Shown here: positions 21,146 to 36,691 of the stretch, piece by piece | How the letters are laid out: each line of letters opens with the position of its first letter | How positions within the stretch are numbered: position 1 is the first letter of the stretch | Virus record (IMG/VR): IMGVR_UViG_3300027902_000001 | Span: 1-64,000 of that record | DNA: 64,000 nt | Reading direction: 5' to 3' (one strand) | Source: a virus | Notes under the pieces: generated by a model | Database searches by the model: none | Seen by the model: only the letters and a program-made list of their open reading frames with translations | What the model was told of the DNA's origin: nothing | Made by a program: the position numbers and the translations under genes

Positions 21146-21174
21146 AGTATAGCATACCTTTCGAGACGTGTCAA
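21146..21174 (-). promoter_or_regulatory. Sigma70-type promoter
   Basis: TTGACA-N17-TATACT with extended TG. Confidence 0.75.
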
Positions 21175-21383
21175 ATCTCGCCTTGGCGCTTGCGCGGCGC
21201 GTTCACGTCAGGCGGCACAGTCCGTAGCCCGGTGCGCAGGTCGCGCAACTCCCACGACCGCTGCTTGCGCGCCAGGCGGCAGATGATCTGGACGCGCTGC
21301 TCGTAGGGCATGGTGTTCCAGCGCGCCAGCATATCGGCGACGAACTGGTCGATCAGGGCGCTCTTGGTGGTGGTAGCGGTCAT
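21171..21383 (-). CDS. Hypothetical protein
   Basis: ORF with GGAG RBS. Confidence 0.4.
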   Translation of the reverse strand: MTATTTKSALIDQFVADMLARWNTMPYEQRVQIICRLARKQRSWELRDLRTGLRTVPPDVNAPRKRQGEI

Positions 21384-21470
21384 GGCATGCTCCCGCCCGC
21401 GAAGACGAGAAAGATGATGGCCAGCACTGCCAGCCACAGCAGAAACAGAATACCGATGACGTTACCTGAA

Positions 21471-21686
21471 TCATCGTTGTCCATGTGGTTCCTCCTGAGC
21501 GGACTCAACCCGGCCAGTTGTCGCCGTCATAGCCTCCAGCACCGGCAGGCCGACTTCGATGGCCGAGCGCAGCGCCTGGCTGAGATTGCCGCTGTAGCGC
21601 GTGCGGGCGATGTCGCGCGCCTTGCGTAGCACGTGTTCCTCCAGGCGGACATTGATGGGCCAATTCGTGCGGGCGATGTAGGTCAT
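21471..21686 (-). CDS. Ribbon-helix-helix-like DNA-binding protein
   Basis: INVRLEEHVLRKARDIA....NLSQALRSAI. Confidence 0.55.
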   Translation of the reverse strand: MTYIARTNWPINVRLEEHVLRKARDIARTRYSGNLSQALRSAIEVGLPVLEAMTATTGRVESAQEEPHGQR

Positions 21687-21973
21687 GGTTGCTCCTTGTG
21701 CTGCTCCAGCGAGAATGACCCCCATTGCAGGTGGGGATGAAAAACGGCGGCGACTAGCACTTCGTCAGGGTTGTTCATGTCTACCGGCGCGCCGAAGATG
21801 TTCATGGGCGCGTCCTTCAAGACAGCGCGAATCATGGCGGCGTAGTGCAGAATGGTCAGCGTGCGCGCCGGTATCAGACCATCTTGCGTGCGCGTCGAGT
21901 TGGCTTTGTAAGTTGGTTTCGGCTCGCTCATCGGCGGCTCTCCTTGCTTGGGCCAGTAGGCTCCGTAGGGCAT
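21683..21973 (-). CDS. Hypothetical protein
   Basis: AAGGAGG RBS with CATAC motif. Confidence 0.45.
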   Translation of the reverse strand: MPYGAYWPKQGEPPMSEPKPTYKANSTRTQDGLIPARTLTILHYAAMIRAVLKDAPMNIFGAPVDMNNPDEVLVAAVFHPHLQWGSFSLEQHKEQP

Positions 21974-21994
21974 GGGTCCTCCTTGGGGCGTATG

Positions 21995-22360
21995 GATAAT
22001 GCTACGATGCCGGCCTGACGGCTCTGATGCCGCACTCGCAGATGTTGGTCATCTGCCGGGTAACGCCCTCGCGCGCGCTGGCGCTGTCCCAGGCCGGGAC
22101 GTGCTCCCCGTGTCTGCGCTTCAAATCGCCTATCAGCGTGTAACGTCCGCTGTTGCCGGACGCCCAGGTGGGCGTCTAGGTGGGTCTAAGCCGACTCGGA
22201 CGGCTTAACTCTGCGCAGGCGACCCTACGCCGTGCTTGTCCGTATACACCACGACCCATGTTGCGCGGCGAGCTTAGTGCGTCCCGCGACCGCTGTTGTG
22301 ATCTAACTTGCCCCCCACAGAGCATGGTACGGTCTTGGTATGTAGCACTCGTCGCGCAAG
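21995..22360 (-). ncRNA. Candidate large structured non-coding RNA 3' of tRNA-Glu
   Basis: At least 8 helices including nested multiloops; no convincing ORF. Confidence 0.5.
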
Positions 22361-22432
22361 CAGCAGATGCGGGACTCGAACCCGCGTCGTAGCCTTGAAA
22401 GGGCCACATCCTAACCGCTAGAAGAATCTGCC
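22361..22432 (-). tRNA. tRNA-Glu (anticodon TTC), CCA not encoded
   Basis: GGCAGAT/ATCTGCT acceptor stem, D loop TAGCGGTTAGGA, TGGCC-CTTTCAA-GGCTA anticodon arm, GCGGG-TTCGAGT-CCCGC T arm. Confidence 0.92.
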
Positions 22433-22583
22433 GTGTTCGCCAGTCTTGTCAGGCGGGGCGCTCGTACCCCCACGGACGCCCCGCCCGGTACGCGATTTCT
22501 TCAGTGACCTGATGGCATGTGCTAAATTGACCTCCTTTCGGCTGCGCCGCCGCCCATGCCGGCGCGCGGAGCGGCAACTTAGG

Positions 22584-23733
22584 TTAGCGCACGACTTCGA
22601 CGCGTTCCCGCTCGGCGCGTGCCGCCATGCCAAACAGACTGCGGGGATCGACCAGCAACCCACCCGCCAGGGCCTCCATCTCCACGGCGGCCAGCGGCTC
22701 CTCCCGCTGCGCGGCCCAGGTGATACCGTTGACGACGCCCAGCACGGTCGCTTCGCCGTGCGTGCCGGCGCTGACCGCCAATTTGGTGTCCTCCGGCCAG
22801 CCGTTTTCCTTGGCCAGCGCGGCCAGCACGTCGTTGAAGTTGGGCAGCGCGGCGGTCTCGGCTTCGACCACCTTGGCCAGAAAACCGGCCCCGGCCTTGA
22901 GCGCCGTGCCGATGGCCTCTTTGGCGTAGAGCTTGATGCGCCCCAGGTCGCCGCGGTGCACCAGCGAGATGCCGATGAAGTCGCCCTGCTGGTCGCCTTC
23001 CTCGTCGTAGCCGAACTCCTGGAAGACGCCCTGACCGGTCTTGGTTTTCAAGTTGCGGAAGATGATGCTGTTGCTACAGCCGGTCTGTTGCAGCAACGGC
23101 CAGACCTTGATGCGTCCGCTGCCGATCTCGTCGTTGGCGACGAACACGCCGACGCCCCAGTGGCCGCCGCGGCCGTCGTCGCGCCCGGTGTCCTTGTACA
23201 TCGTGCGCAGCACCAGATGATCCGGGCTGACATAGGGTCGCGCTAGGCGCAGATCGGGCGGCCGCGACTCTTGCAGTAGATCGTAGATCGTGTCCAGTAG
23301 GTCGCTGTTGGGCAGGCAGGGGTACTTCTCGTCCAGCACCGCGCGGCCTTGCTCGCCGTAGCAGCGCACCAGCCAGCGTTTGTTGTGCGCCTGCTTGGCA
23401 TGGAAACCGAGCAGAGTGGCACGCACCGGGCCGGGGAAGCCGGCCAGGTAGTCGAAGGGCAAGCTCTTGGTCGAGCCGGCGCCGAAGTGACCGGGGCCGA
23501 ACTTCTTGTAAAGCTGTTGGGTGGCGTGATCGGACAGCGCCACCGGCAGTATGTTGGGAATGGTGAGCTTGCAGTCGGCGTCGAAGGCCAGATCGCCGCC
23601 CGCGAACACGTGATCGTGTTTCTGCGCGTCGAACGCCAGTGACGCGTCGCGCAGCGCGGCCAGTTCCTGCATGGGGTCGCCATGCGACTGTGGGTCGTGG
23701 CCTACCGCGGCGGAAAAGATTGATTGGTTCATG
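22584..23733 (-). CDS. DUF932-like phage protein
   Basis: RAVLDEKY, NDEIGSG, CSN, C-terminal VVNGITWAAQ. Confidence 0.6.
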
Positions 23734-23757
23734 TAACCTCCTGGGTGAGTATGGGCA

Positions 23758-25146
23758 TCAGAACAGTTCCGGCTGTTCTTCGGTCGCCGAGCCAGGCTCC
23801 TCCTGGTTGGCCAGCGCCGCGGCGCGCGCCTTGAGCACGGCGGCGATGCGGTCATAATCCTGGAGCGCGTCCTGGAGTTGGAACTGGATTTGCTTGGTTT
23901 TGAGCTGGCGGGTCGGGCGCAGCCAATCGAACAGGGCGCGATAGACGCCTTCAGTTGCCGTGCTTTCCGACCAGGCCCAGGCGGCGAAGGCCAGGCGCAG
24001 GCTCTCGTCGGATTCCAGGGCGGTCAGCATCTCCTCGATCTTGGCCTGCATTTCAGCCGTAGCCGGCGTGTTTAGATGACCGAACTGATTGAGCTTCAGG
24101 CGGATCGGCTCGATAGCGGCTAGGTCGGCGGGTAATGGCTCATCGGTTGATTCTGGCGCCGGCTCCGCCGCGGCTGGCTCCTGGTGATCGAAGTCGATGC
24201 CCTCATTGGCGGCGCGTCGGCGCGTGTCCTGGTCTTCGGCGTAGCCCTCGGCCGCGGCGGCCTTGACTGTGGGCGTCAGGGTCTGGGCCTGACGTTCGGC
24301 GCTTTCCAGCAGCGTGCGCAGGCGCTCGGTGGGCAGGCTTTCCAGGGTGTCGATGTCGCCCGGCAGCGCATCCTGGCCGACGCGATCCAGAAAATCCTCG
24401 ATGAACTCGACGTTGCTCTGCGGCATACCGGGGATGTGGCGGTCGGCGTCCTTCTTGGCCCGGTTGCGCGCCTTGCGGCCCCAGGTGTAGCCGCCGCTGA
24501 GTTCGACCTTGATCGGGGCAGGCAACTTGACCTTGCGCCGATTGTCGCCCCACCCTTCCCACTTCTCGTCAGTCCACTTGTCCTTGTTTTTGACGATACC
24601 GAAGCCCAGGATCGGATGGTAGGTCTGGTGCAGCAACTCCATCTTGGCCTTCACTTCGACCTGGGTGGCGATGCAGACGATGCCGCTGTCGCCCTCCTCG
24701 ATGTCCATCTCGTCCTTCTCGTCGGCTGTCATGGGGCGGTAGTCGTAGTCCACGGTGCCGACGCCGCGCCGTTGTGACTGCTTGGCGACCCCCTGGTAGC
24801 TCGGCACGATGCCCATCGTCTTGTCCAGGAAGAAGTCGCGATCCAGGCGCTCATCGGGGTTGGCCAGTTCGTAGAAGTAGCAGCCGATGGCCAGCGCCAG
24901 CGGCACCTCTTTACCCTTGGGGCGGGAGGCCAGGATGGCGAACACGCGCTTAGCCATGTCTTCGTCGCTGGCGACCAGGGTGGCGAACTTGTTCTGGTCG
25001 GTGACCTCGGTAATACCGATCTTGGTGAAATCCGTCGCCTTCATGGTGCGCAAGTCGGCGGCGGTCGGCGCGGGCAGCACTTCGCCCTGCGTGGCCAGCG
25101 CACGCGTCGGCGCGGCTGGCGCAGTGGGTGGGGTAGGTTGGTTCAT
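23758..25146 (-). CDS. Putative single-strand annealing recombinase (RecT/Bet-like)
   Basis: IVPSYQG and KARNRAKKDADR resemble RecT/Bet core motifs; acidic tail ending PELF. Confidence 0.4.
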   Translation of the reverse strand: MNQPTPPTAPAAPTRALATQGEVLPAPTAADLRTMKATDFTKIGITEVTDQNKFATLVASDEDMAKRVFAILASRPKGKEVPLALAIGCYFYELANPDERLDRDFFLDKTMGIVPSYQGVAKQSQRRGVGTVDYDYRPMTADEKDEMDIEEGDSGIVCIATQVEVKAKMELLHQTYHPILGFGIVKNKDKWTDEKWEGWGDNRRKVKLPAPIKVELSGGYTWGRKARNRAKKDADRHIPGMPQSNVEFIEDFLDRVGQDALPGDIDTLESLPTERLRTLLESAERQAQTLTPTVKAAAAEGYAEDQDTRRRAANEGIDFDHQEPAAAEPAPESTDEPLPADLAAIEPIRLKLNQFGHLNTPATAEMQAKIEEMLTALESDESLRLAFAAWAWSESTATEGVYRALFDWLRPTRQLKTKQIQFQLQDALQDYDRIAAVLKARAAALANQEEPGSATEEQPELF

Positions 25147-25153
25147 AATCCTC

Positions 25154-25561
25154 CTATACTAGTTCCTCGAAGCCGCTGGCCTGTTCCTCAGCGGTCAGGA
25201 CAATTTCTTCTTCCCAGTCGCACGCCCTGCAACTGACCTTCACCGTGACCTCGCCGCCGTAGAAGGTCTTCATGTAGCGGTAGCTCTTGATGGGTTTGCC
25301 GTAGCGATCTTTGGATTCAAGCCGACTGGCGCCTTCCTCGCTGACGGTCTCAACTTCCAGGTCGTGCTCGCAACCTGCCAGGCGTTCAAAGTCGGCCTCG
25401 GCGCTCAGGTTGGCCTCTTTGAGTTCACCGCCGCATTCGTCGCAGCGCAGGACAACGCGCATTTCCACGCTAACGGTGTCGTCGGCGATCTCAGGGGTCT
25501 CGGCTTCGACGGTCGGCGGGTCTTCGTAACTCACAAACTTCTGACAATCTGGACAGCGCAT
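25154..25561 (-). CDS. Zinc-binding hypothetical protein
   Basis: CPDC, CDEC and CRAC motifs; AGGAGG RBS. Confidence 0.6.
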   Translation of the reverse strand: MRCPDCQKFVSYEDPPTVEAETPEIADDTVSVEMRVVLRCDECGGELKEANLSAEADFERLAGCEHDLEVETVSEEGASRLESKDRYGKPIKSYRYMKTFYGGEVTVKVSCRACDWEEEIVLTAEEQASGFEELV

Positions 25562-25694
25562 AGAACCTCCTGGGATGAATTTGGCTCGCCGCGGTGGGGT
25601 GAGGCATTGCTGACCCGGAGGCGCAACGCCACCTGGATGTACCCAGTTGCTCCCCCACCGCGACGCGTATGCCTGTGTGTCAGGCACAGATGCT

Positions 25695-25723
25695 ATTGTA
25701 GCACAACACGCTACAAATGTCAA
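25695..25723 (-). promoter_or_regulatory. Sigma70-type promoter with overlapping palindromic operator
   Basis: TTGACA-N17-TACAAT; TTGTAGC-N7-GCTACAA inverted repeat inside it. Confidence 0.8.
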
Positions 25724-25757
25724 ATTGACGTATGCCGCCTTACAGCGCCGGGTGTCA

Positions 25758-26330
25758 TCAGCCGCCGCGCTCGCCGTGATAGGCTTCGCGGAGCGTCTTG
25801 ACCAACTTGCCCTTGACCCAACGCTTCTGGTCCTGGTATCCCATGCCGCGCTCGTAGCCGTCCAGAGTGAACTTCAGGCCCGGCCAGCGTGCGGCACAGG
25901 CGGCGATCACCGACGACGGCGGCGACCAGGCCGTCTCGAAGTGGACGACCAGAGTGTCTGGCTTGGGCTGCTCGTACTTGGTATCGCTGGCGTTCCACTT
26001 GGTATCCCAATGCTTGATGTGCCAGTCGTACCAGTTATCTGCGCCGTACGCGGCGATCCATTGCGCGCGCACGTCGGCGGGCACCGGGCCGCCACGCCCG
26101 AACTTGTCGGCAGAATCGGTCGGTGGGTAGTACGGCACGTCGCCGACGACGATATCGCGCAGCACATCCGGGCAGGGCAGGATAGCGTTGAAGTCGAATA
26201 CGAGTTGCGCATCGGCGTCTTTGTTGCGTGGATAGACTTCCTTAGCAGGTCGCAGCATCACGGTCATGAAGTCTGCGACGAGTTCCGATTGACCGACGAC
26301 CTTCAGGTCGCAACTGCACCAGTTAGGCAT
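25758..26330 (-). CDS. DUF1281/YubB-like ferredoxin-fold phage protein
   Basis: MPNWC, NWYDW...WDTKWNA, FETAWSPP. Confidence 0.75.
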   Translation of the reverse strand: MPNWCSCDLKVVGQSELVADFMTVMLRPAKEVYPRNKDADAQLVFDFNAILPCPDVLRDIVVGDVPYYPPTDSADKFGRGGPVPADVRAQWIAAYGADNWYDWHIKHWDTKWNASDTKYEQPKPDTLVVHFETAWSPPSSVIAACAARWPGLKFTLDGYERGMGYQDQKRWVKGKLVKTLREAYHGERGG

Positions 26331-26931
26331 CTTGATCCTCCGTTTCTTCCGGTTCTTCGTATACTGCCCGCCAGGCGTCGAAGGCGGTAAAGACACCGGC
26401 ATCCAGCGGCAGCGTGGCGATGCACGTGCAGGGATAGTAAACTGGCCCACCCTCGTAGCAGGGTTTTCCGTCCTGGCCGTAGCGATTGGTGGGGTCGGAT
26501 TCTTCTTGGAAGCCCCGCCACACTTCCAGGATCGAGTCGTCCAGGTTGGCGACGTAACCCCATTCGCAGAACAGCGAGTCACGGATGAAGTAGTTAGCGT
26601 CCAGGAGGATGCCGGTCGCCAGCATGGCTCCCATGTCACCTTGGGCTTTTCTGAGCAAGCAGTACCAGTTGTCGATGCGCCGATTATCCACGCTCAGGTC
26701 GGCATACTGGCGGCACTTGGCGATGTCCTCTGGCGTGGGCGTGCTGTCTTCGCTCACGGCGCGCAGCGCGCGCACCTGTGATCTCAGTTCGTCCGTGGTG
26801 TTGTCTGCCAACAGTTCGGCCAACTGCGCGGCGATCTCCGTCCCCAAGCCGGGCGGATAGCTATCGAAGTGATTGTAGGCCAGATAGTCATGGCCGTCCA
26901 ACCGCCAGCCGTAAGTACCTCTAGTACCCAT
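26323..26931 (-). CDS. Conserved phage protein (MGTRG family)
   Basis: MGTRG..YNHFDSYP.GLG, SLFCEWGY. Confidence 0.65.
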   Translation of the reverse strand: MGTRGTYGWRLDGHDYLAYNHFDSYPPGLGTEIAAQLAELLADNTTDELRSQVRALRAVSEDSTPTPEDIAKCRQYADLSVDNRRIDNWYCLLRKAQGDMGAMLATGILLDANYFIRDSLFCEWGYVANLDDSILEVWRGFQEESDPTNRYGQDGKPCYEGGPVYYPCTCIATLPLDAGVFTAFDAWRAVYEEPEETEDQDA

Positions 26932-27229
26932 GTTGATCCTCCTGAGCGGCGGCGGCCGCGGCGACGTATTGCGCCGCATCGTCCAGCAGGGCGCGCGCGG
27001 CCTGAGCCGCAGCGGGCCGCCCGCACGTGTCCATGTAGTCAGCCTGGCCGCGCACCTGCTCCGCGGTCAGGCGACCGGTGATGTTGCCCGGTCGGACGGT
27101 GTAGCGCGTACCGTAGCCGGTGACGAAGTTGTACTGGCCGGGCAGATAGTTCGGCCCGGTGCAGACGGCGGGACCCAGCGCGGTCAGCCAGACCAGGTCG
27201 CCGGGCGCGAAGGTCTCGTCTTGGTTCAT
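26921..27229 (-). CDS. Hypothetical protein
   Basis: Coupled ORF with RBS. Confidence 0.5.
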   Translation of the reverse strand: MNQDETFAPGDLVWLTALGPAVCTGPNYLPGQYNFVTGYGTRYTVRPGNITGRLTAEQVRGQADYMDTCGRPAAAQAARALLDDAAQYVAAAAAAQEDQHGY

Positions 27230-27471
27230 GGTGCGTCTCCGTAGTGCTTGGGGTGATCCGACCAGTGGCGGTCGTAGGGCGTCGGCGCGTCCGGGTCATC
27301 TTTGAGCAGGTCTTGCAGGCGCGCGTAGGCGCGGCTGTCGATCACGTCGCCTTGGTACAGCGCCTTGAGCAGGTCGCGCAGGGCGGCTTCGAGCCGCGCG
27401 ACTTGCTGGCCGATCTCCAGGAGTTCGTCGGCCAGCTTTTCTTTGGTGGTTTCGTCGTAGCATTGGGTCAT
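27226..27471 (-). CDS. Hypothetical protein
   Basis: Coupled ORF, GGAGG RBS. Confidence 0.5.
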   Translation of the reverse strand: MTQCYDETTKEKLADELLEIGQQVARLEAALRDLLKALYQGDVIDSRAYARLQDLLKDDPDAPTPYDRHWSDHPKHYGDAP

Positions 27472-27902
27472 AGCGCAGCCTCCATAGTGGCAAAGACCGA
27501 CTCGTAGCGGGGCCGGTACAAGTCGGTCGAGTCCGCGATCAAGTTCGGGTCGGCGGTGTTCAGGAAACGTAGGTGTTCTAGCCACAGCAGTTCCCGTTGT
27601 GCATCCAACAGCAGGAACGCCAGGTGGCGCAGTTGTGGTTCGGCGGCGAGGCGGGCGCGGGCAGCCTCCTCAGCCAGCCGCGCGCCGCGCCGGTAGAGTT
27701 CGTCCAGCATGAACTGGACAGCATCGTCGTAGTGCCGGTGATACCAGGCCGGCAACTTCCCCTGGGCGTATGCTTGATGCTCCCACGCGTCCACCGCGGC
27801 GTCGGCCCAGGCCAGGATGTCGTAATCCTCATCGCTCAGCGGGACTTGGGCCGCGTGCGTGGCTTGTGCGCGCAGCCAATTCTCTTGTTCGTCGGTCAAC
27901 AT
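27468..27902 (-). CDS. Hypothetical protein
   Basis: AGGAG RBS; start MLTDEQ. Confidence 0.5.
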   Translation of the reverse strand: MLTDEQENWLRAQATHAAQVPLSDEDYDILAWADAAVDAWEHQAYAQGKLPAWYHRHYDDAVQFMLDELYRRGARLAEEAARARLAAEPQLRHLAFLLLDAQRELLWLEHLRFLNTADPNLIADSTDLYRPRYESVFATMEAAL

Positions 27903-27910
27903 GGCATCTC

Positions 27911-28132
27911 CTATGCGGACTGCGGCGCGTCCCAACCGATCTGCTTGCTGGTCGCGCTGTGTGCGGCGGCGCCGATCTCCGCACGCTTCTCCTTCATTTT
28001 GGCGGCAAAGTAATCGCCGGTGAAGCCTTGGAACCAACGCGAGCCGACTGGCTCGAAGCGCCAAAGATAGAGCATGTGGTCGTAGCTCATCTGGTCGATA
28101 AGTCGGCATAGTTGTTCTTCTTCAGTTGTCAT
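27911..28132 (-). CDS. Hypothetical phage protein
   Basis: IDQMSY..ML.LWRF..SKQIGW; AGGAGG RBS. Confidence 0.6.
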   Translation of the reverse strand: MTTEEEQLCRLIDQMSYDHMLYLWRFEPVGSRWFQGFTGDYFAAKMKEKRAEIGAAAHSATSKQIGWDAPQSA

Positions 28133-28140
28133 GGAACCTC

Positions 28141-28362
28141 CTAGTAGCCCAGGTGGTACACGTGGCCGGTGGGTGCGTAGGACGTATGGGGATACTCGCC
28201 TACGCCGACGATCTCGGCCAGGGTGATCTTGGTGCGCGTCAGTTCTGTGACGCGCACCAGTCCGCCGATGCTGCTGCCGCCGTCGCTGTAACCTTCGTGC
28301 AGCAGCAGGATGTCGCCGACGCGCAGCGTGCGCGTCTTGACGGGTGGTTGTGGTTTGGGCAT
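28141..28362 (-). CDS. Hypothetical protein
   Basis: ORF in the early array with RBS. Confidence 0.45.
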   Translation of the reverse strand: MPKPQPPVKTRTLRVGDILLLHEGYSDGGSSIGGLVRVTELTRTKITLAEIVGVGEYPHTSYAPTGHVYHLGY

Positions 28363-28522
28363 GTTATCCCCCTAGTGGTGGTTTGCGAGCGCCATCAGCA
28401 CGATGGCGGCCACGACGATGCCGACGCCGGCCAGCGACCAGAGGACGTACTGGCCGCAGGTCGCGCCTTGCGGCGCGGCGGGTGTGTGTCGATAGCGTGG
28501 TGGGTTGTGGCGCAGGGTGCGT

Positions 28523-28885
28523 CTACGCATGGTCGGCTCCGTCTGTGGGCGTCAGTTCGGCCAGGATCGCACTGTAGCGACCGGGCGTCAGTTCGGTTTG
28601 GGCCAGGGCCCGATAGGCTTGGCGCTCAAAGTAGCGCAGGATGTCAGCGTGGATCGTGTCGTCCAGCGCGGCGTGAGAGAATTCCAACAGGCTCTCCAAC
28701 TCCTTGATGACCGCGCGATAGCCGGCCGGCTCCAGCCCGGCGCAGCCATTGACGCATGCCATCGCGCGGTCGTAGTCGTCTAGTTCCAGCGTCACCGGTC
28801 CGAGCATCCGGCCCCTGCGGTCGCGCTGGACCCGGTGGGTATCGTGCTGCCAGATGTGTTTCCAGGGTTCAGGACTCCAGGTCAT
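28523..28885 (-). CDS. Hypothetical protein
   Basis: WSPEPW..RAMACVNGCAG motif; GGAGG RBS. Confidence 0.55.
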   Translation of the reverse strand: MTWSPEPWKHIWQHDTHRVQRDRRGRMLGPVTLELDDYDRAMACVNGCAGLEPAGYRAVIKELESLLEFSHAALDDTIHADILRYFERQAYRALAQTELTPGRYSAILAELTPTDGADHA

Positions 28886-29035
28886 GGTGATCCCTCCGGT
28901 TGAGATAGTTGACGGCTATAACACACGCACCCGCGCCGAGCACCAAGGGGACGGCCACCGCCAGGTGGTTCACGCCGGTGGCCAGGCCGAGCAGAAACAC
29001 GGCGATCACGTAGAGCCAGTCGTGGTTGTGCATGG

Positions 29036-29293
29036 TCAATCCGCGAGCCAGAAGCCCGCCTCCTTGTATTCGGCTGCGGTCAGATGCGTGATCTTGGTGG
29101 CCGCGGGGATGCAAAGGCCGAGCGGTCTGTCGTCCAGCCATGTCACCTGATCGGCGCGTACCAGGTCAAGACTGCCGTCGCGGTGCAGATAGGTGATCCG
29201 CATGTCGGGCCATTCCGACGCGCTGACGCGCCGGCCAAAGATCGGTTGGCGTGACCGCATGTCGCGGTCGTCGCGATGGGTAGTGGTTTTCAT
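29036..29293 (-). CDS. Hypothetical protein
   Basis: AAGGAG RBS with CATAC motif. Confidence 0.5.
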   Translation of the reverse strand: MKTTTHRDDRDMRSRQPIFGRRVSASEWPDMRITYLHRDGSLDLVRADQVTWLDDRPLGLCIPAATKITHLTAAEYKEAGFWLAD

Positions 29294-29320
29294 TTCTTCT
29301 CCTTGAGTAGTATGCGCGCC

Positions 29321-30103
29321 TCAGCGCGCCAGTCCGAGCCGTGACGCGATGTAGACCCACGTCGCACGGCGTAGTTGCTTGCCGACCACAGCCAGCAGCG
29401 GCGCGTCGTCCGGCGTGCGCGTGTGCTGGAGCAACTCGAAGGCCAGTTGCCGGGGCAGCGGACCCAGCGGCGACTTGGGATCGACGATCACATTCGCCAG
29501 CAGCGAGGGCACCAGGTAGCCCTCCGCGATGTGCGACTGGATGTGATCGTTTTGGGTGGTATCGCCCCAGGTTTGACCGTCCTCGTTCACCATGCAGCAG
29601 TACCAGCAATCGCCGCTACCGGGTGCGGGCAGGCTGCCGGCTAGCAGTGCGTCCACCAGATGCTTGACGTAGGCTTTGGCGTCCTTGGTCAACTGCGCCT
29701 GGCGATCAGCGGCATCCTGGTTGACGCCCTCGACGCGGCCGTCCGGGTAGACGGTGCAGCCGTCGGCGAATGAGTAGGAGGGGATGGGCGCTCCCGGTGC
29801 GGAGTAGAAATACAGCCGCCACTGACCCTTCTCTGACCAGACCCGCCAGTGATTGCCGGCCACGGCCAGCCGCAGCACCTTGTTGATGCGATCCTGGGTG
29901 GTCGCGGTGCGCCAGCCGCCGGTGTTGAGCGTGACGCGCCCATCCGGGTAGCAGGCCGCGATGTCGGTGTTATGCAGCACCGCGGCGATGTGCGGGTCCA
30001 CCCCGATAATCCGGCGCACGCGCGTGTTATTACCCCACGCGCGCTCCATTTTGGACTGGCCCGCTTCGATATGGGCCAGCAGTTGCGAGTATGCAGTTTC
30101 CAT
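29321..30103 (-). CDS. Hypothetical phage protein
   Basis: 260 aa; LH.T.I..VTLNTGGW.T.TT..RIN and GDCWYC motifs; AGGAGG RBS. Confidence 0.65.
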   Translation of the reverse strand: METAYSQLLAHIEAGQSKMERAWGNNTRVRRIIGVDPHIAAVLHNTDIAACYPDGRVTLNTGGWRTATTQDRINKVLRLAVAGNHWRVWSEKGQWRLYFYSAPGAPIPSYSFADGCTVYPDGRVEGVNQDAADRQAQLTKDAKAYVKHLVDALLAGSLPAPGSGDCWYCCMVNEDGQTWGDTTQNDHIQSHIAEGYLVPSLLANVIVDPKSPLGPLPRQLAFELLQHTRTPDDAPLLAVVGKQLRRATWVYIASRLGLAR

Positions 30104-30127
30104 GTGATCCTCCTGAGACGGTATGGG

Positions 30128-30349
30128 TTACGCGACGAGTGCGTCCAGTTCGGTTTGCGGCACAGTCTTGGCTTGTGCGCCAGCCAGCCAACGGTTGATG
30201 TGTTTCGACGTGGTTTTGCTGTAAGACTGCCCGGTGCGGATGTACTTGCCGTCAACGTACGCGGCGACCGGCGTGGAGTACGAAAACAGGATCGTCGCGC
30301 GCTCTGTATGTAACTCCGTCTGATTGCTGCCAATGGGTATAAGTTGCAT
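30128..30349 (-). CDS. Conserved small phage protein
   Basis: LFSYSTPVA..YSKTTSKHIN motif. Confidence 0.7.
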   Translation of the reverse strand: MQLIPIGSNQTELHTERATILFSYSTPVAAYVDGKYIRTGQSYSKTTSKHINRWLAGAQAKTVPQTELDALVA

Positions 30350-30358
30350 GGTATCCTC

Positions 30359-30703
30359 CTACAGCAGGTGCGCGCCCAACCGCGCCGCCACGTCGCCCCA
30401 ACAGCCGACGCGGTATGTTTCGGTCAGGTAGTCGTACAGCAGGGTCGTGTCATACGTGTTGCCCTGGTTGACGTAGCTCAGCCTGGGATGGCCTCCCAGG
30501 CGCTTATCCCACACGTACTCGACGCCGTGGCCGTCAATGTCATCGTTGCAGGCTTGCAGGATGCGGTCGCTGCGCGACCAGCCATCAGTCAGGCTGGTAA
30601 CTGGAATCGGCCCGCCGTGGATGTAGTCGCGCAGGCGGGCGGAGGCTTCCCAGGTCATGCCCCGGATGAGCATGAGCCGCTTGGATGATGGTGCTCTAGG
30701 CAT
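30359..30703 (-). CDS. Hypothetical phage protein
   Basis: GHGVE..YVNQGNTYDTT..WGD motif. Confidence 0.6.
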   Translation of the reverse strand: MPRAPSSKRLMLIRGMTWEASARLRDYIHGGPIPVTSLTDGWSRSDRILQACNDDIDGHGVEYVWDKRLGGHPRLSYVNQGNTYDTTLLYDYLTETYRVGCWGDVAARLGAHLL

Positions 30704-30890
30704 GGTTGACGCTCCCGGCCGCGGCGCGACGATCCAGTTCGTCGTCGATGTGGACGGTCTCGGCTTCGTCCTTCAGGATCGCAATTATCTCGGCGGCAGG
30801 CAAGCCTGATGCGTCGATGGCGGCGTGCAAGGCGCGCCGGAAGTTGATCCGTTGCGCGCGCTCCAATGGTGCGGCTTCGATATGATCCAT
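30696..30890 (-). CDS. Hypothetical protein
   Basis: AAGGAGG RBS directly after the hammerhead. Confidence 0.55.
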   Translation of the reverse strand: MDHIEAAPLERAQRINFRRALHAAIDASGLPAAEIIAILKDEAETVHIDDELDRRAAAGSVNHA

Positions 30891-30901
30891 GTGTTTCCTC
30901 C

Positions 30902-30973
30902 TTGACCTGGCTCGTTCAGCGCCGGGCAGTCATCCCCGGTCAGAGCCGCGGCCTCCCGACCGCAGCTTTCGCC
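30902..30973 (-). ncRNA. Type II hammerhead ribozyme (copy B)
   Basis: GGC-GAAA-GCTGCGGTC(GGGA)GGCCGCGGC-TC^TG-A-CCGGG(GATGACTG)CCCGG-CG-CTGAACGA-GCC-AGGTCAA. Confidence 0.8.
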
Positions 30974-30976
30974 TGT

Positions 30977-31195
30977 TCAATCCCCATCATCCTCTTGCTT
31001 GTCACGACCATAGCGATTGCGCAGTACGTAACCGTGGCGGCGTGCATAGGTACGCCAGAAGGCCCGGCTTTGCGCGCCCAGGTCGCCGTGGTAAAACCAT
31101 GACGCGCCCCCATCGGTGGATTGGCTGGCGCAGAAACCATCGCCAAATGGGTCGCCGTTGGGGTAGATTTCAAGGATGTCGGCAGGATTACGCAT
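30977..31195 (-). CDS. Hypothetical protein
   Basis: AAGGAGG RBS. Confidence 0.5.
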   Translation of the reverse strand: MRNPADILEIYPNGDPFGDGFCASQSTDGGASWFYHGDLGAQSRAFWRTYARRHGYVLRNRYGRDKQEDDGD

Positions 31196-31436
31196 GGTTG
31201 GCCTCCTTGGATTTATGCGTGGTCAGGTCGGCGCGACAGTAGCGGCACTCGTGGTAGATAGCGCAGCCGTCCTCCCAACTGACGCCGACCAGTATGGTGC
31301 CGGTCAACTTCTGAAACGGCATACCAGGTGGCACGCGGTCAGCCGGCACGGCCATCATGCCGTAGATCAAGCCCCGGCTCCGATCCTCGTGGTAGGACTC
31401 CCGGCAACCGTCATCGCAGAACTTACGCTGACTCAT
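31188..31436 (-). CDS. Small Cys-rich protein
   Basis: CDDGC and CRYC motifs; GGAGG RBS. Confidence 0.5.
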   Translation of the reverse strand: MSQRKFCDDGCRESYHEDRSRGLIYGMMAVPADRVPPGMPFQKLTGTILVGVSWEDGCAIYHECRYCRADLTTHKSKEANHA

Positions 31437-31438
31437 GG

Positions 31439-31636
31439 TTAGCCTCCGTAGTGCCAGACTTGGGTGCCGACCGGCAGGCGCTTGCACTTGGGTCCGCCAT
31501 GCCAGTCACGCAGGTATGACCGGAACTCCTGCTCGCCGATGGGTTCACGGAACTCGAATGCGCCCAGCGCGTAGGCGTCCAGCGAAAACTTGGCCGACCA
31601 ACGTGCGCTTTTACGGGACATGCTACGCTGGCTCAT
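31439..31636 (-). CDS. Hypothetical protein
   Basis: GGAGG RBS, coupled. Confidence 0.45.
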   Translation of the reverse strand: MSQRSMSRKSARWSAKFSLDAYALGAFEFREPIGEQEFRSYLRDWHGGPKCKRLPVGTQVWHYGG

Positions 31637-33092
31637 GGTTGGCCTCCCGCCACGCGCAGTACATCTTACGCGCCTTGATGTAGATGCTCGGATCGTCGGC
31701 GCAGTATTCCATGACGCCGACCGACAACTCACTGATCTGGTTGGCGTGTTTGCGCGTGCAGTCGCTCGCGCCCTCACTGGCGACGTGGGCCGCCTCATGG
31801 ATGACGACGGTGACGAAGCGTTCCCACGACCACTGGGAGATGTGGTCAGTATTCAGGATGATGCGGGTGGCGTCACCTGCGCCGTCGCACTCGTCCTTGA
31901 GCGCCCGACCCTCGATGGGCGTTTCGACCATGCCGCAACACGCCAGTAGGGTCTGCGCGGCGTGCAGCACCGGCTCCGGGATGGGTTTTTGGAGCGCCTG
32001 TTGCGCCTTGACCGTCACGATTTCGGAGACGTTAGGGATGGCGTCCGTCACCCACGCCGGCGGCGCGTAGTAGCCGGTCAGCACCTTACTGTTGGTCATC
32101 GCCGACGCGTCGGCAATCTGGGCCGCGTCGTCCGCACGCGTGGTGGCCCAGGACAGCTTCTTGAGACCCGCGGTCATCTTGAACTGCTTGACGCCGGCCG
32201 CGACAATGCGGGCCGGGGGCGCTTGCATGAACCGGAACTCCTCCGGTTGCGCGCCGTAGTTGGCGGCGTATTTGAGGACGGCGGCGATAGCGTCGGCGTC
32301 CGCGTAGCGGGCGAAGATTTCGCCGCATTCGGTGCGGACGTGCTCCCAGGAGAAGGCGGCCCGGTCGCGGCCGGGCGATTGGGACACGTTGTAGCTGAGC
32401 GCCAGGTTCCACTGCTCGCCGACCCGTTGGCCGCGACTGTACAACTGGCCGGCTTCGGTGATGATCAGCGGCGAGGACGCCTTGGGTGGCCGGTCGGCCA
32501 GGTTGACGCCGACTGCCGCCAGCTTGCACTGCAAGTGCGGATAGACGGCGTAGTTGAGGCCCGGATGGCGGGCGAAGGCTTCATAGGCGTTGGCCGCGTC
32601 CCGCGCTACGCCCGGCCCGGCATACGACCAGTAGGTGCCGCGGCGGGGCGTGGCAGTCTGGTACACGTCCAGCGTGAGCACCTGCTTGCCTCCGCCGTTA
32701 TAGTTGGCCAGCCGACCGGTCATGAGCCAGTCCTGGGACGCCAGCAGCTTGACGAAACCGCTGCGCGCGGCGACCAAACTGGAGATCATTTCGCCTTCGC
32801 CGTGCTCGCCGACCGTGGCGTCGTCGCCACGCTTGCCGGACTGGCCCAGCAAAAGGATGGTGTCCAGATCGACGCCGCGGCCGCTGTCGGCCAGGGTGAT
32901 GTGGTCGGCGTCGATCACGGTCAGGGCGGGCGCGCACTTGGCCGTCAGGCACTCGTCAAGTTGGTTCTGGACGGATTCCTTGACGGCCTTGGCCGCGTCC
33001 CAATCCGGCACGTAGTCGGCGCTGAGAATGGTCTGGATGGTTTGCGCGTAGGCGTAGGTACGCCCATCCAGGACGATGTTAGTCGGTGACAT
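31623..33092 (-). CDS. GHKL (Hsp90/MORC-like) ATPase fused to a C-terminal HExxH metallopeptidase-like domain
   Basis: KESVQNQLD (N box), DSGRG (G1), GEHGEG (G2), VIHEAAH. Confidence 0.7.
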   Translation of the reverse strand: MSPTNIVLDGRTYAYAQTIQTILSADYVPDWDAAKAVKESVQNQLDECLTAKCAPALTVIDADHITLADSGRGVDLDTILLLGQSGKRGDDATVGEHGEGEMISSLVAARSGFVKLLASQDWLMTGRLANYNGGGKQVLTLDVYQTATPRRGTYWSYAGPGVARDAANAYEAFARHPGLNYAVYPHLQCKLAAVGVNLADRPPKASSPLIITEAGQLYSRGQRVGEQWNLALSYNVSQSPGRDRAAFSWEHVRTECGEIFARYADADAIAAVLKYAANYGAQPEEFRFMQAPPARIVAAGVKQFKMTAGLKKLSWATTRADDAAQIADASAMTNSKVLTGYYAPPAWVTDAIPNVSEIVTVKAQQALQKPIPEPVLHAAQTLLACCGMVETPIEGRALKDECDGAGDATRIILNTDHISQWSWERFVTVVIHEAAHVASEGASDCTRKHANQISELSVGVMEYCADDPSIYIKARKMYCAWREANHEPA

Positions 33093-33399
33093 CGGACTCC
33101 TCCCCTGCTTTGATCTGTGCGGCGCGCACCGCGGCCATACGTGCGGTCATGCGCTTGACGCTGCGCAAGTTGTAACCGAGCGACTCCAGTTCCTCTTTCA
33201 GGTCGGCGTATTCGTTTGGCGCGGCCGGCCTGGTCCAGCCGGTGATGCCAACTGATGCCGCGCCATGCTGACCGACGTGCATGCAGGACAACATCCTGTA
33301 GTAACCATCTGCGATCTCCGGGAACAACGCAATGACATCTCCGTCGCCGTCCTTGAACTTGCGGAAGATGACGGTGGTCTGTGCAGTGTCTTGCTCCAT
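33079..33399 (-). CDS. Conserved phage protein
   Basis: VIFRKF..VIALFP..HVGQH..EY..L.EELESLGY motif. Confidence 0.7.
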   Translation of the reverse strand: MEQDTAQTTVIFRKFKDGDGDVIALFPEIADGYYRMLSCMHVGQHGAASVGITGWTRPAAPNEYADLKEELESLGYNLRSVKRMTARMAAVRAAQIKAGEESDVTD

Positions 33400-33424
33400 A
33401 ATAATCCTCCTGAGAGCGTATGTT

Positions 33425-33585
33425 GGATAGCACCTGACGCGCCATCTTGCTGCGCGTCCATGAGGGCCGGCGGGGGAACGATCCCCGCGTACAGTCTTGG
33501 CAGACCGCTGCACCAGCATCAGCCCATGCGCGCATGGTTGGTTCGGCCTGGTAAGCCGCCGACCATGCGCAGACACCCATTGACC
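33425..33585 (-). ncRNA. Candidate structured intergenic RNA
   Basis: Four to five GC-rich helices including a multiloop. Confidence 0.4.
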
Positions 33586-33640
33586 GTGATCCTCCTTGGT
33601 TAGTATGCTGCCGCGGCGCATTACCCCGCCAGTGACCCGC

Positions 33641-33949
33641 CTAGTTCGGTCGCGCCAGGTCCAGCGCGACGTGTTCGGCCTGGGCTGGCGTGATGCTGTC
33701 CAGGCCGGCGACGATGCGGTCGGTATGCTCGTCCTCGTGCCGGGTCGCGTGACGCTTGCGCGTGACGACCACTCTGCCGCAACACGTATGGGCCGTCCAG
33801 ACACACGGCATGGCGTAGATGCGGGCGTGTTCTTCGGCCAGTTGGATGGCATACGCCAACATGTCCGTCACGCCGTCGAAGGCGTCCGGGTCAATGTCAG
33901 CGCAGGTGCCGACCGTGAAAGTGTACTTGTCGGTGACGAGCTTAGTCAT
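33641..33949 (-). CDS. Hypothetical protein
   Basis: GGAGG RBS, coupled. Confidence 0.5.
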   Translation of the reverse strand: MTKLVTDKYTFTVGTCADIDPDAFDGVTDMLAYAIQLAEEHARIYAMPCVWTAHTCCGRVVVTRKRHATRHEDEHTDRIVAGLDSITPAQAEHVALDLARPN

Positions 33950-34211
33950 GGGATACCTCCATTGCGTCATCCAGCGCCGCCTGTTGCGTCGCGACATGCG
34001 CGTTGATTGCATCCTGCACGTGACCGGATTTGAGTGCCGCGAACGCGCGCAGACACTTCAGGTGGTCGTGGCACTCGGCGACTATCCTGGCAATGGCTAT
34101 CCCAAAGGTTAGCGGGTTGCGCGGAGTTCGGGCTGTGCGCTGACTTTCGATGCGTAGCGCACGGAGAATTTCGATCTTCTGGTTGTACTGCTCATTGGTC
34201 ATACTTGGCAT
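33942..34211 (-). CDS. Hypothetical protein
   Basis: AGGAGG RBS directly after the hammerhead. Confidence 0.55.
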   Translation of the reverse strand: MPSMTNEQYNQKIEILRALRIESQRTARTPRNPLTFGIAIARIVAECHDHLKCLRAFAALKSGHVQDAINAHVATQQAALDDAMEVSHD

Positions 34212-34225
34212 GGGATACCTCCTGC

Positions 34226-34297
34226 TTGACCTGCCTCATTCAGCGCCGGACAGTCATCTCCGGGCAGACCGGACGCGCCTGGCGTCCGGTTTCGGCA
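34226..34297 (-). ncRNA. Type II hammerhead ribozyme (copy A)
   Basis: TGCC-GAAA-CCGGACGC(CAGGC)GCGTCCGG-TC^TG-C-CCGGA(GATGACTG)TCCGG-CG-CTGAATGA-GGCA-GGTCAA. Confidence 0.82.
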
Positions 34298-34299
34298 CG

Positions 34300-34416
34300 T
34301 TACTGCGCGCCGGCCAGCGCGTCGCGCAGCGCGCTGAGCCACGACCGCCACGGCCAGCGGACGCCGATGCCGTGACGGGAGACGAGAATACCTGAACGGG
34401 AAAAGGTGATGGTCAT
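34300..34416 (-). CDS. Small protein (38 aa)
   Basis: AGGAGG RBS; start MTITFSR. Confidence 0.45.
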   Translation of the reverse strand: MTITFSRSGILVSRHGIGVRWPWRSWLSALRDALAGAQ

Positions 34417-34426
34417 GGGATACCTC

Positions 34427-34756
34427 CTAGTATTCGCAGACCAGATAGACGTAGCGCCAGTTACGACCGGCCGCGGTTGGCGGTTGTATGTGGCATGGCC
34501 AGCGACCACGGCGCAGCAACTTCTTGACAGTCGCCGGCGGGATGGCGTGACGGAAGTCTTGCTCCGTCCACACCAGTTCCCACACCGGCTGCCCCAACCA
34601 GGCCAGTTGGGCGTAGTAGTTACCACCCGCATAGTCGCCATCTTGCCAGCAGTCCTGCGCCATGCTCTGCATAACGGACGGCGAAAGCAGGTGCTCGCAT
34701 TCGGTTACGATATGCTCGCTGGTCGTTCCCTGATGGATCGTGTAACGCTTGAGCAT
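34427..34756 (-). CDS. Hypothetical protein
   Basis: ORF in the early array. Confidence 0.5.
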   Translation of the reverse strand: MLKRYTIHQGTTSEHIVTECEHLLSPSVMQSMAQDCWQDGDYAGGNYYAQLAWLGQPVWELVWTEQDFRHAIPPATVKKLLRRGRWPCHIQPPTAAGRNWRYVYLVCEY

Positions 34757-34767
34757 TAGACACCATC

Positions 34768-35055
34768 CTAAGCCAGATACAGACCACAGATCACGTGGTC
34801 GGTGTCAAGCGCGCCCCATTCCTCGCGCGGATAGCGGAGAAGCACCGCGCTGAAGTAGGTGTCGACCACCCGCATGTCCCAGCCGGCGAGGCTGGATTGC
34901 TCCATGTCGTGCAGGTCATAGCACCAACCCTTGTAACGCACGAACGCGCCGGGGTCGGCCGGGTCATGGTAGTCCAACTCAGCTTGTTCGCGCGGCGTGA
35001 GTTGGTTCCAGTCCAGCACCAAGCGCGGGTGCCGGTTCGTAATGATCTTCGGCAT
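34768..35055 (-). CDS. Conserved phage protein
   Basis: IITN.H.R....W..LT.FVRYKG..Y..GWD..D.YFS motif. Confidence 0.65.
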   Translation of the reverse strand: MPKIITNRHPRLVLDWNQLTPREQAELDYHDPADPGAFVRYKGWCYDLHDMEQSSLAGWDMRVVDTYFSAVLLRYPREEWGALDTDHVICGLYLA

Positions 35056-35084
35056 CTTACCCTCCTACTCCGTGAGACGTATGG

Positions 35085-35297
35085 TTAGTTGTACACGTAC
35101 TCGACCGGCGTCAGCAGCAGCCAATACTTCTGGTTGCGCAACTGCGCCAGCGCCGCCTTGGTCGCCTTGGCGCGGGGGTTCTGACCCCGCACCGTCACGG
35201 ACGCGCTGAACATGCGTTCCTTGCCGGTTACGGCGTCAATGCCGAGCACTTGCGCCCGGCAGGTGCAAACCACCTTGGAACTGTTGGCCTTAGACAT
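35085..35297 (-). CDS. Hypothetical protein
   Basis: GGAGG RBS; start MSKANS. Confidence 0.5.
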   Translation of the reverse strand: MSKANSSKVVCTCRAQVLGIDAVTGKERMFSASVTVRGQNPRAKATKAALAQLRNQKYWLLLTPVEYVYN

Positions 35298-35404
35298 GGG
35301 ATACCTCCGTTCCTGAGCGTGTATGGATGAACGCAACTCTTGGCTCACAGCCAAGCCTCTGACCGCGCCCGCGCGTGGCCAGAAGTCTGACCGGGAACGT
35401 ATGG

Positions 35405-35545
35405 TTACGCCCGCGCCGCCCGTAAGTACATGGACGCCAGCGCCAGGAATGCACCGGCCAGCGCGTAGTAACCCGATTCGATCTCCCACAGCGCCATATC
35501 CAGCGCCCGTGCCGTACAGCCCAAGAAATACAGACGATCTTTCAT
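35405..35545 (-). CDS. Small hydrophobic protein (46 aa)
   Basis: GGAGG RBS plus CATAC motif; MKDRLYFLG... Confidence 0.45.
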   Translation of the reverse strand: MKDRLYFLGCTARALDMALWEIESGYYALAGAFLALASMYLRAARA

Positions 35546-35569
35546 GGTATCCTCCCCAAGATGTATGGT

Positions 35570-35885
35570 TACTTGCCCGGAACGTAGGGTTACTTGCTAC
35601 TCATGGTCATAACGTGGCGCGGTATTATCCTTACCAGTTGCCCGCTACCTGACGCGGTCTGTCATCCCGCGACGTTTTACGACGCCCGCGCTACCAGCTT
35701 CGGATATGGCGGCTGACTCTAGGCTGGATCGCACGCTATGACCATGCAGGAGACTAACTCCCACCCCCGACTGACCCTCCACATCAGCCGGGACGCGACG
35801 GGCACTTGAGGGATTCCCGTCAAATTCTTACCGATTGCTTGAGTTGCTCGCCGGCCATCCGACACGTGCCGTCTGAGAACAACAC
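35570..35885 (-). ncRNA. Candidate structured non-coding RNA
   Basis: 15-bp long-range helix 35602-35616/35732-35746 plus several hairpins; no convincing ORF. Confidence 0.5.
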
Positions 35886-36038
35886 CTAGGCGACTTTCCC
35901 ACTGATGAGCGGTCCAAAGTTGTCGTAGGCGTAACGCATCCCCGCCGCATACGTCTCAAACAGCCCCAGGGTAACGCGCTCAAATCCGCCGCTTACCATG
36001 CCAGTGTGGTACACAAGAACTGCGTCCATCTTCTCCAT
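35886..36038 (-). CDS. Small protein (50 aa)
   Basis: AGGAGG RBS plus CATAC motif; MEKMDAVLVY... Confidence 0.5.
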   Translation of the reverse strand: MEKMDAVLVYHTGMVSGGFERVTLGLFETYAAGMRYAYDNFGPLISGKVA

Positions 36039-36071
36039 GATGATCCTCCTGGTGATGTATGGTGATGGCGC

Positions 36072-36269
36072 TTACGCCGGTAGCTCTATCCAGTATGCGC
36101 ACAGCATGGTGATGACCAACGACATGATGTAGATGTTCACAGCCGTCCCCGTACTTGCTACCGCTTGGGACAGCCGGTTGATCTCGGCGCGCACTTGCTT
36201 GGCGTCCCCATGCGTTTCGGCCATGATCTCGTCAAAATACTGCTTTGCTTCCGCCCTGTACGCTTCCAT
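36072..36269 (-). CDS. Hypothetical protein
   Basis: AGGAGG RBS; start MEAYRAE. Confidence 0.5.
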   Translation of the reverse strand: MEAYRAEAKQYFDEIMAETHGDAKQVRAEINRLSQAVASTGTAVNIYIMSLVITMLCAYWIELPA

Positions 36270-36691
36270 GATAACCCTCCTATGGATGTATGTTTTGGTG
36301 ATGTATGTTTGACCTACATCGGTTATACCTACATCGTCACGCATAACATAGGTTTGAGTGATGTAGGGTCGCCGTCTGCTTTTTCTGCCAGTTGTATCCG
36401 AAATGTATGGTTGTACCGATACAATCATACACTCGTTACGTCATCCAATCACTAGACTTCTGTCAACTCCCGGATCGTTTCCGTGAGACGTATGTTACGG
36501 TCACGGCTTTGCATAAGTCGCCGTATTCCGTGGGACGTATGCAAAGCTCTGGTCGCAACTGTCAACGTTGGATGACACCGTTGCGCCGCAAGGCGCGACC
36601 TGCGGCTGCGCGGCTGTCCAAAAAGGCGCCTTGCAATAGCAGTCTATCATGGTAGTTTGACGCGGTGCATACTGGCGTATCACCTATCACC

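Follow-up and report, generated by a model that had tools for sequence, protein, structure and literature searches.

Paired type-II hammerhead motifs around seven genes of a lake phage: candidate self-processing sites of a polycistronic transcript

What do two hammerhead ribozyme motifs do when they lie on the same strand of a phage genome with a block of seven genes between them? This question is raised by the virus record IMGVR_UViG_3300027902_000001, of which we analysed bases 1-64000 (the window, 64,000 nucleotides (nt) of a complete record of 73,495 bp with direct terminal repeats). On the minus strand of the window, two predicted type-II hammerheads, HH-A (34225..34297) and HH-B (30901..30974), flank seven open reading frames (ORFs), and their double cleavage would release a defined RNA segment. 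The original prediction for this locus, made from the sequence alone, was that an early polycistronic transcript processes itself into a stabilised or circular mRNA, that cleavage may expose the adjacent ribosome binding sites (RBSs), and that the whole represents an undescribed RNA-level control system. Our analysis leads to a more restricted answer. The best overall explanation, to which we give a probability of roughly 60%, is that intercistronic type-II hammerheads with one additional nucleotide in their core self-cleave and split the polycistron into independent mRNAs.

Both motifs matched the Rfam model Hammerhead_II (RF02276) over its full length and on the minus strand in a permissive scan of positions 30500-34800, HH-A (34297..34225) with 32.0 bits and HH-B (30974..30901) with 20.1 bits. 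Read in the direction of transcription, HH-A consists of the first strand of stem II (34297-34294, pairing with 34235-34232), the GAAA (34293-34290), the stem III hairpin (34290-34268), C17 (34267), the stem I hairpin (34266-34244), the core strand CUGAAUGA (34243-34236) and, past the second strand of stem II, the pseudoknot tail GGUCA (34231-34227). HH-B has the core CUGAACGA and is identical to HH-A in loop I (GAUGACU) and in the tail (AGGUCAAG), and differs from it in the sequences of stems II and III. The pseudoknot between UGACU of loop I and GGUCA of the tail forms 5 of 5 pairs in each copy, more than the 4 bp asked of such an interaction; these pairs are invariant, and therefore hold no covariation. 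Furthermore, both copies contain the GAAA with G12-A13-A14, a paired A15.1-U16.1 and C17 at the H17 position. In our alignments the predicted cleavage sites follow C17 at 34267/34266 in HH-A (after GUC, from the position of this triplet relative to stems III and I) and at 30943/30942 in HH-B (after CUC). According to established hammerhead chemistry, the 3' product of HH-A would begin at U 34266 with a 5'-OH and the 5' product of HH-B would carry a 2',3'-cyclic phosphate on its last nucleotide, 30943, and the two sites bound a minus-strand RNA of 3,324 nt (34266..30943). A repeat search returned a shared 49-nt direct repeat of 88% identity with a spacing of 3,324. The positions, the common strand and the segment length given in the original prediction were therefore exact.

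Several results point to a conserved structure behind this repeat. A covariance model built from HH-A alone with canonical pairing, and searched unfiltered against both strands of the 64 kb, recovered HH-B with 63.3 bits (E ~2e-15); the next best of its 44 matches at E<=10 reached 16.5 bits and had no catalytic core. The whole 73.5-kb genome contains exactly two hammerhead copies. When HH-A and HH-B were aligned by structure, 49 of the 50 cells formed standard pairs, including 39 of 40 in the three helices (stems I and III capped, stem II open), and 6 of the 25 pairs had changed on both sides with pairing retained (four in stem III, one in stem I and one in stem II). As a control, partners slid by 1-3 columns paired in only 29-41% of cases. 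In addition, the unconstrained minimum free energy (MFE) fold of HH-A is the three-way junction itself (z = -2.39). The two copies thus compare as a conserved RNA structure would, rather than as a simple repeat, and HH-A and HH-B look like genuine type-II hammerhead motifs for which self-cleavage is predicted.

The core of both motifs carries an insertion. Its strand reads CUGAAYGA in the two copies, one nucleotide longer than CUGANGA, the extra A following A6, so that the C3-U4-G5-A6-N7-G8-A9 strand is interrupted (CUGA-A-Y-GA) with all of its named positions otherwise present. This is best explained if HH-A and HH-B belong to a type-II subfamily with one extra A after A6. A natural insertion at this place, named A6a, has been described with low activity (Perreault et al. 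2011, section 8, PMC3088659), and we would expect the two ribozymes to be slow rather than dead.

The placement of the motifs is equally regular. Each ribozyme occupies a gap of 86-88 nt between a stop codon and an RBS, starting 2 nt past the stop codon and ending 0-1 nt before the Shine-Dalgarno sequence (SD) or overlapped by it. On the upstream side of HH-A, an ORF of 38 amino acids (aa; 34300..34416, minus strand, with the RBS AGGAGGTATCCC and an ATG at 34416) terminates in a TAA at 34302-34300, 2 nt before the ribozyme, and the SD of the first gene of the segment (33942..34211, minus strand) begins 1 nt past the HH-A tail. Likewise, the seventh gene (72 aa, 30977..31195, minus strand) terminates in a TGA at 30979-30977, 2 nt before HH-B, and the first gene past HH-B (64 aa, 30696..30890, minus strand) has an SD, AAGGAGG, that shares 3 nt with the end of the ribozyme tail. 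The surrounding operon has few gaps. Our own heuristic gene calls give 24 junctions between 35055 and 25758, and in 21 of them the neighbouring genes overlap or are less than 30 nt apart. Of the remaining three, two (88 and 86 nt) contain the ribozymes and the third is a 241-nt stretch at 33400-33640. A terminator between the two sites, which according to the original prediction would prevent their co-transcription, was not found on the minus strand between HH-A and HH-B by a simple scan. The tight packing of the genes and the lack of a terminator-like site in that scan would fit transcription of both ribozymes on one RNA. Since the ribozymes look genuine and lie on one strand of a gap-poor operon in which no terminator-like site was seen, their cleavage would free a defined seven-gene RNA.

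The mechanism that we propose would begin after transcription, once ribosomes have cleared the site and each ribozyme can fold, with stems I and III as hairpins, stem II as a short open helix of 3-4 bp and a 5-bp pseudoknot between loop I and the 3' tail. Each ribozyme would then cut itself after C17. The upstream RNA would have the GC-rich hairpin of stem III at its end and carry a 2',3'-cyclic phosphate there, and the downstream RNA would have a 5'-OH directly before the stem I hairpin with its pseudoknot, the SD and the start codon. Ends of this kind, a hairpin with a cyclic phosphate on one side and a 5'-OH on the other, are expected to slow 3' exonucleases and 5'-monophosphate-dependent decay. 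The polycistron would thereby become three independent mRNAs, carrying the upstream genes, the 3,324-nt segment with its seven genes and the downstream genes, and their hairpin-capped ends lacking a 5'-monophosphate could uncouple the stability and translation of the three. Each ribozyme would in this way act as a natural insulator, and the arrangement resembles the ribozyme insulators of synthetic biology. Exposure of the RBSs by cleavage does not appear to be part of this mechanism. The predicted accessibility of the SD at HH-A was 0.52-0.55 in 12 of 14 uncleaved contexts and 0.54 after cleavage, that is, unchanged, and at HH-B it ranged from 0.06 to 0.74 depending on the arbitrary length of the context, with pairing partners that lie within coding sequence. 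Self-processing of the early polycistron is thus the portion of the original prediction that our data favour, given genuine-looking motifs on one strand of a gap-poor operon, and its novelty, the circularisation and the RBS exposure are not supported.

The same layout was found elsewhere. Pattern scans of metagenomes and genomes returned four loci each, and real hammerheads are present in two of these, L013 and L014, which are 99% identical over 710 aligned bases. L013 contains three type-II hammerheads within ~1 kb (2398-3406, plus strand), each with a different core: one is canonical (HH1), one has the A6a insertion together with the core, loop and tail of the window copies, and one (HH2) has the core CCGAAUGA and a U15.1-A16.1 swap. 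All three follow a stop codon and precede an RBS and an ATG, and two ORFs, of 73 aa and ~180 aa, are flanked by them. The proteins of L013 are unrelated to those of the window, with only one weak match. The genes around the L013 hammerheads are ORFans, and a phrog_1933 gene and a TnpB/IS605-type gene are close by. The other six loci of these scans (L012, L015, L016, L017, L018 and L019) are not real hammerheads, L017 reaching 16.6 bits without the GAAA. A search for TerL relatives gave 55 loci, all at no more than 45% identity, and among the 16 largest of these records, which were scanned for the ribozyme, one carries a hammerhead, a canonical type II between a stop codon and the next ATG. The canonical-core hammerheads L013 HH1 and L078 occupy the same stop-ribozyme-start layout. 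As L013 and a distant TerL relative share it, this layout is a recurring design across unrelated gene sets.

Searches for closer relatives were negative. With blastn, positions 30500-35000 had no match in 50,697 phage records, and the strict ribozyme pattern had none in viral contigs. A looser core-plus-tail pattern gave seven loci in viral contigs, none with hammerhead elements upstream, which marks them as chance matches. Relatives of the 489-aa protein encoded in the segment (gene 4, described below) were likewise absent from viral contigs, both when the single protein was used as the query and when its 14-sequence alignment was used (60 pattern matches, none confirmed). Only three public runs share sequence words with the region, all of them lake-water DNA metagenomes, and these gave short contigs only. 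Contigs from lake water with at least 80% likeness join 30642 to 30904, 31190 to 31632, 31447 to 31680 and 34430 to 34772, omitting whole small genes in each case, and the first of these joints leaves out the first gene past HH-B; all four are possible artefacts. The contigs suggest presence/absence variation of genes adjoining the ribozymes among relatives, with the reservation that such joints can arise artificially.

Some of our results weigh against the interpretation of HH-A and HH-B as working processing sites. Rfam at its gathering thresholds reported only a tRNA in the window, as the 32.0 and 20.1 bits of HH-A and HH-B are below the 37 bits of RF02276, and at E<=10 the same model also matched in 11 of 14 control genomes, so that a sub-threshold match alone is weak proof. 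The covariation rests on an alignment of two rows that was fitted to the structure, and its statistics are accordingly modest. The MFE fold of HH-B does not contain the hammerhead junction (z = -1.34, with 17 of 200 shuffles folding as well). The low activity of the A6a variant in Perreault et al. (2011) implies that cleavage may be slow or partial. The terminator search was a simple consensus scan, and the searches by DNA, by ribozyme pattern and by the 489-aa protein yielded no close phage relative in which conservation of the pair could be examined. With regard to the Rfam threshold, all six type-II copies that we scored, from the window, L013, L014 and L078, are below 37 bits (32.0, 20.1, 35.3, 33.6, 33.6 and 35.9), in part because cmscan takes the first stem II pair as an insertion. 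The threshold thus appears to miss this group of phage hammerheads, and phage hammerheads are probably under-counted as a result.

We now take the competing explanations in descending order of probability. The tight spacing around the ribozymes raises the question of whether cleavage is translation-gated or otherwise regulated instead of constitutive, the slow A6a core cutting only at a ribosome-free site. Given the footprint sizes of ribosomes, a ribosome that terminates on the upstream ORF would be expected to unfold the ribozyme, and so would a 30S subunit that initiates at the SD; the degree of splitting could then report translational load or the stage of infection. The distances agree with this proposal, with the stop codon 2 nt before stem II and the SD 0-1 nt past the tail or overlapping it, and the spacing is equally tight in L013 and L078. 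The A6a insertion, moreover, is found in three independent copies with a variable N7, and L013 HH2 (CCGAAUGA) carries it too. Conditional activation of slow phage variants has in fact been suggested by Perreault et al. (PMC3088659). Tight spacing may, however, reflect mere genome compaction. Furthermore, canonical-core hammerheads (L013 HH1 and L078) are found in the same layout, so that slowness is not required for it. We consider regulated cleavage unlikely at this locus.

Also unlikely, and ranked behind regulated cleavage, is that the motifs fold without appreciable cleavage and have only a structural role, for example as protective hairpins or as spacers that separate cistrons, or else are decaying relics. 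The low activity of A6a in the assay of Perreault et al. (PMC3088659) and the position of both copies under the Rfam cut-off are compatible with it, and L013 HH2 has further changes in the core (CCGA and the U15.1-A16.1 swap). Against this, both window copies retain C3, U4, G5, A6, G8, A9, G12-A14, A15.1-U16.1, H17 and an intact pseudoknot, and their stems have diverged with compensation, which a plain hairpin would not need.

The direct repeats could also mark the edges of a gene cassette that is mobile or was inserted recently, since a 49-nt repeat with 88% identity lies on both sides of the block and related lake-water contigs have gene-sized presence/absence joints by the ribozymes (for instance, 30642 to 30904). 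We regard this as improbable. There is no compositional break at either border, the G+C of the segment (0.61-0.68) being equal to that of the downstream flank, the repeats have diverged with compensatory changes, the block has no integrase or transposase among its Pfam and PHROG matches, and the joints were seen at 80% likeness, where artefacts can arise.

Lastly, the 5'-OH and 2',3'-cyclic-phosphate ends of hammerhead products would suit RtcB, and the original prediction accordingly considered a circular 3,324-nt mRNA. In this scenario both slow hammerheads cut and an RtcB-type ligase of the host, which may encode one, or reverse ligation by the hammerhead joins 30943 to 34266 into a translatable and unusually stable 3.3-kb circle. 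The two ends come from different ribozymes, the 5' half of HH-B supplying the 3' end and the 3' half of HH-A the 5' end, and no hammerhead is rebuilt at the junction: its chimeric stem II would be G-C, G.G, C-G, A.A and its MFE fold is not a hammerhead. The compensatory change in stem II that keeps the native ribozymes paired is thus what breaks the hybrid junction. In the phage we found no RtcB and neither a polynucleotide kinase (AAA_33) nor a 3'-phosphatase (PNK3P) domain, and so the phage encodes no complete pathway for end healing and sealing. Its only RNA-ligase domain is the PF09414 RNA_ligase domain (63.3 bits) of a 223-aa ORF (11816-12487, minus strand), which we take to be of the Rnl2 type and to need 3'-OH and 5'-P ends, and for which these enzymes would have to heal the ends. 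A circular message for seven early genes would be exonuclease-proof and, among bacterial viruses, the first known circular mRNA with coding capacity. Circular products were raised by Perreault et al. (PMC3088659), where spliced and circular forms are given as undetected, and known hammerhead circles are small circular RNAs (circRNAs). We consider this the least probable outcome, very unlikely here.

Returning to the segment that cleavage would release, all seven ORFs between the sites have RBSs, in agreement with the original prediction, and they lie on the minus strand. Gene 1 (89 aa, 33942..34211) has no Pfam or PHROG match, and gene 2 (102 aa, 33641..33949) has no family match. Downstream of the 241-nt stretch follow gene 3 (106 aa, 33079..33399), gene 4 (489 aa, 31623..33092), gene 5 (65 aa, 31439..31636), gene 6 (82 aa, 31188..31436) and the seventh gene described above. 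Gene 4 belongs to phrog_6077 and has 13 metagenomic homologues with 32-61% identity. In an alignment of the 14 sequences, D69-x-G71-R72-G73, H97-G-E-G-E101 and H432-E-x-x-H436 are invariant. The protein has a weak likeness to the N-terminus of GyrB-type ATPases (E ~1e-3, positions 39-82) and a weak SprT-like metallopeptidase likeness. Its earlier label as a GHKL-HExxH protein is plausible, with weak support.

The stretch at 33400..33640 on the minus strand has no convincing ORF. A structured RNA had been placed there; the folding energy gives no support for it (z = -1.6, i.e., no excess structure), and there is no U-tract. A possible eighth start, an ATG with an RBS at 33580, opens a 211-aa frame that has a non-coding-like composition and overlaps the next gene in another frame. 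The stretch also contains two CATAC-N7-GGAGG sites (33422 and 33607), the members inside the segment of a more widespread motif. CATAC-N(5-10)-GGAGG has 10 sites versus 0.45 expected, nine on the minus strand before leftward genes (19066-36292) and one on the plus strand (40986-41001). As a promoter this motif was rejected, since the nine aligned minus-strand sites show no conservation farther upstream, and it is not a recognisable one. A separate 14-nt element comprising SD, spacer and start codon, GGAGGTATCCCATG, is present in four exact copies on the minus strand (33947-33960, 34209-34222, 34414-34427 and 35295-35308), with an expected count of 0.31 even when two mismatches are allowed. The element stands at the start of four small genes that are neighbours, and one of these comes right after HH-A.

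The bearer of the ribozymes is best explained as a lake phage of 73.5 kb in which both motifs sit in an early, replication-side leftward operon. The record has a G+C content of 61%, and no isolated phage has a terminase more than 39% identical to its own. The minus-strand gene block runs from ~37.9 kb to ~12.5 kb, is long, densely packed and rich in small ORFans, and includes a DnaB-type helicase, a tRNA-Glu(UUC) at 22361-22432 (minus strand) and the PF09414 RNA-ligase domain. The terminase and a DNA methylase are encoded in a plus-strand block from 39.5 kb. At its promoter-proximal end (35800-38400) the leftward block has a G+C of 0.51-0.58 versus 0.60-0.68 farther downstream. Two weak promoter-like sites were noted on the minus strand (37971..37943 and 37187..37160), and a strong one, matching at 11 of 12 positions with a TG, lies on the plus strand at 39263-39290. 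The original prediction had tied the ribozymes to the tRNA, the CATAC motif and the RNA ligase of this genome, and we found nothing that connects them.

Among known systems, the retrozymes and viroid-like hammerhead circRNAs also have two hammerheads that bound an RNA with ends suited to ligation. There, the ribozymes of a pair are identical repeats and a ribozyme is rebuilt at the junction, and most of the RNAs, which are small, do not code for proteins. At the present locus, in contrast, the junction fails to rebuild stem II and the RNA would be a 3.3-kb coding segment. The HHphage of the haloviruses HF1 and HF2 has a mapped 5' end near its cleavage site (Perreault et al. 2011, Discussion). 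It differs from HH-A and HH-B in being a single copy of a high-salt variant at a transcript start in an archaeal virus, whereas here the two copies form an intercistronic pair. The A6a variant of the same paper (section 8) has, like HH-A and HH-B, one nucleotide inserted after A6, and the U15.1-A16.1 swap reported there recurs in L013 HH2. In PaP3, a phage tested by Perreault et al., Rfam found no hammerhead at E<=1 and the HH-A model gave only noise (14.8 and 13.1 bits).

The best in vivo evidence for cleavage of such ribozymes comes from Desulfovibrio vulgaris, where three type-II hammerheads cleave in vivo beside phage-like genes (Olzog et al. 2021, PMC8782182). Two of them, loc 2 and loc 3, are same-strand neighbours with the type-II topology among phage-like and hypothetical genes, as in the window. 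They are ~250 nt apart and their cleavage has been demonstrated, whereas the window copies are predicted from sequence and carry the core insertion. A 2019 review (PMC6765202) likewise suggests processing of polycistrons by hammerheads and calls for more work, describing the roles of these ribozymes in bacteria and phages as "largely elusive".

The closest counterparts are the prophage clusters of Perreault et al. (2011, PMC3088659), which include a triple from A. tumefaciens that cleaves in vivo. There, multiple hammerheads on one strand, among them type II ones, and with loop I paired to the tail in a pseudoknot, flank single genes or small groups of genes whose functions vary and are not known. 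Processing to operon- or gene-length mRNAs was proposed. The claim of an undescribed control system therefore does not stand, as the cutting of a polycistron is the hypothesis of that paper. Together with the 2019 review it already states the processing idea, so that the original prediction coincides with a published, unproven hypothesis; neither segmentation nor circularisation is new as an idea, and both are treated as hypotheses here as well. The clustered arrangement, i.e., at least two same-strand copies flanking genes in phage DNA, is present in the window as two minus-strand copies around seven ORFs of a complete phage genome. The locus offers a compact test case for the role of hammerheads in bacteria and phages, since the complete genome has just two of these ribozymes, both are placed between a stop codon and an RBS, and they share a core insertion reported to slow cleavage. 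Compared with the prophage clusters, the bearer is here a free 73.5-kb phage with terminal repeats, and its two copies, both with the A6a insertion and both below the Rfam threshold, stand 3.3 kb apart around seven genes.

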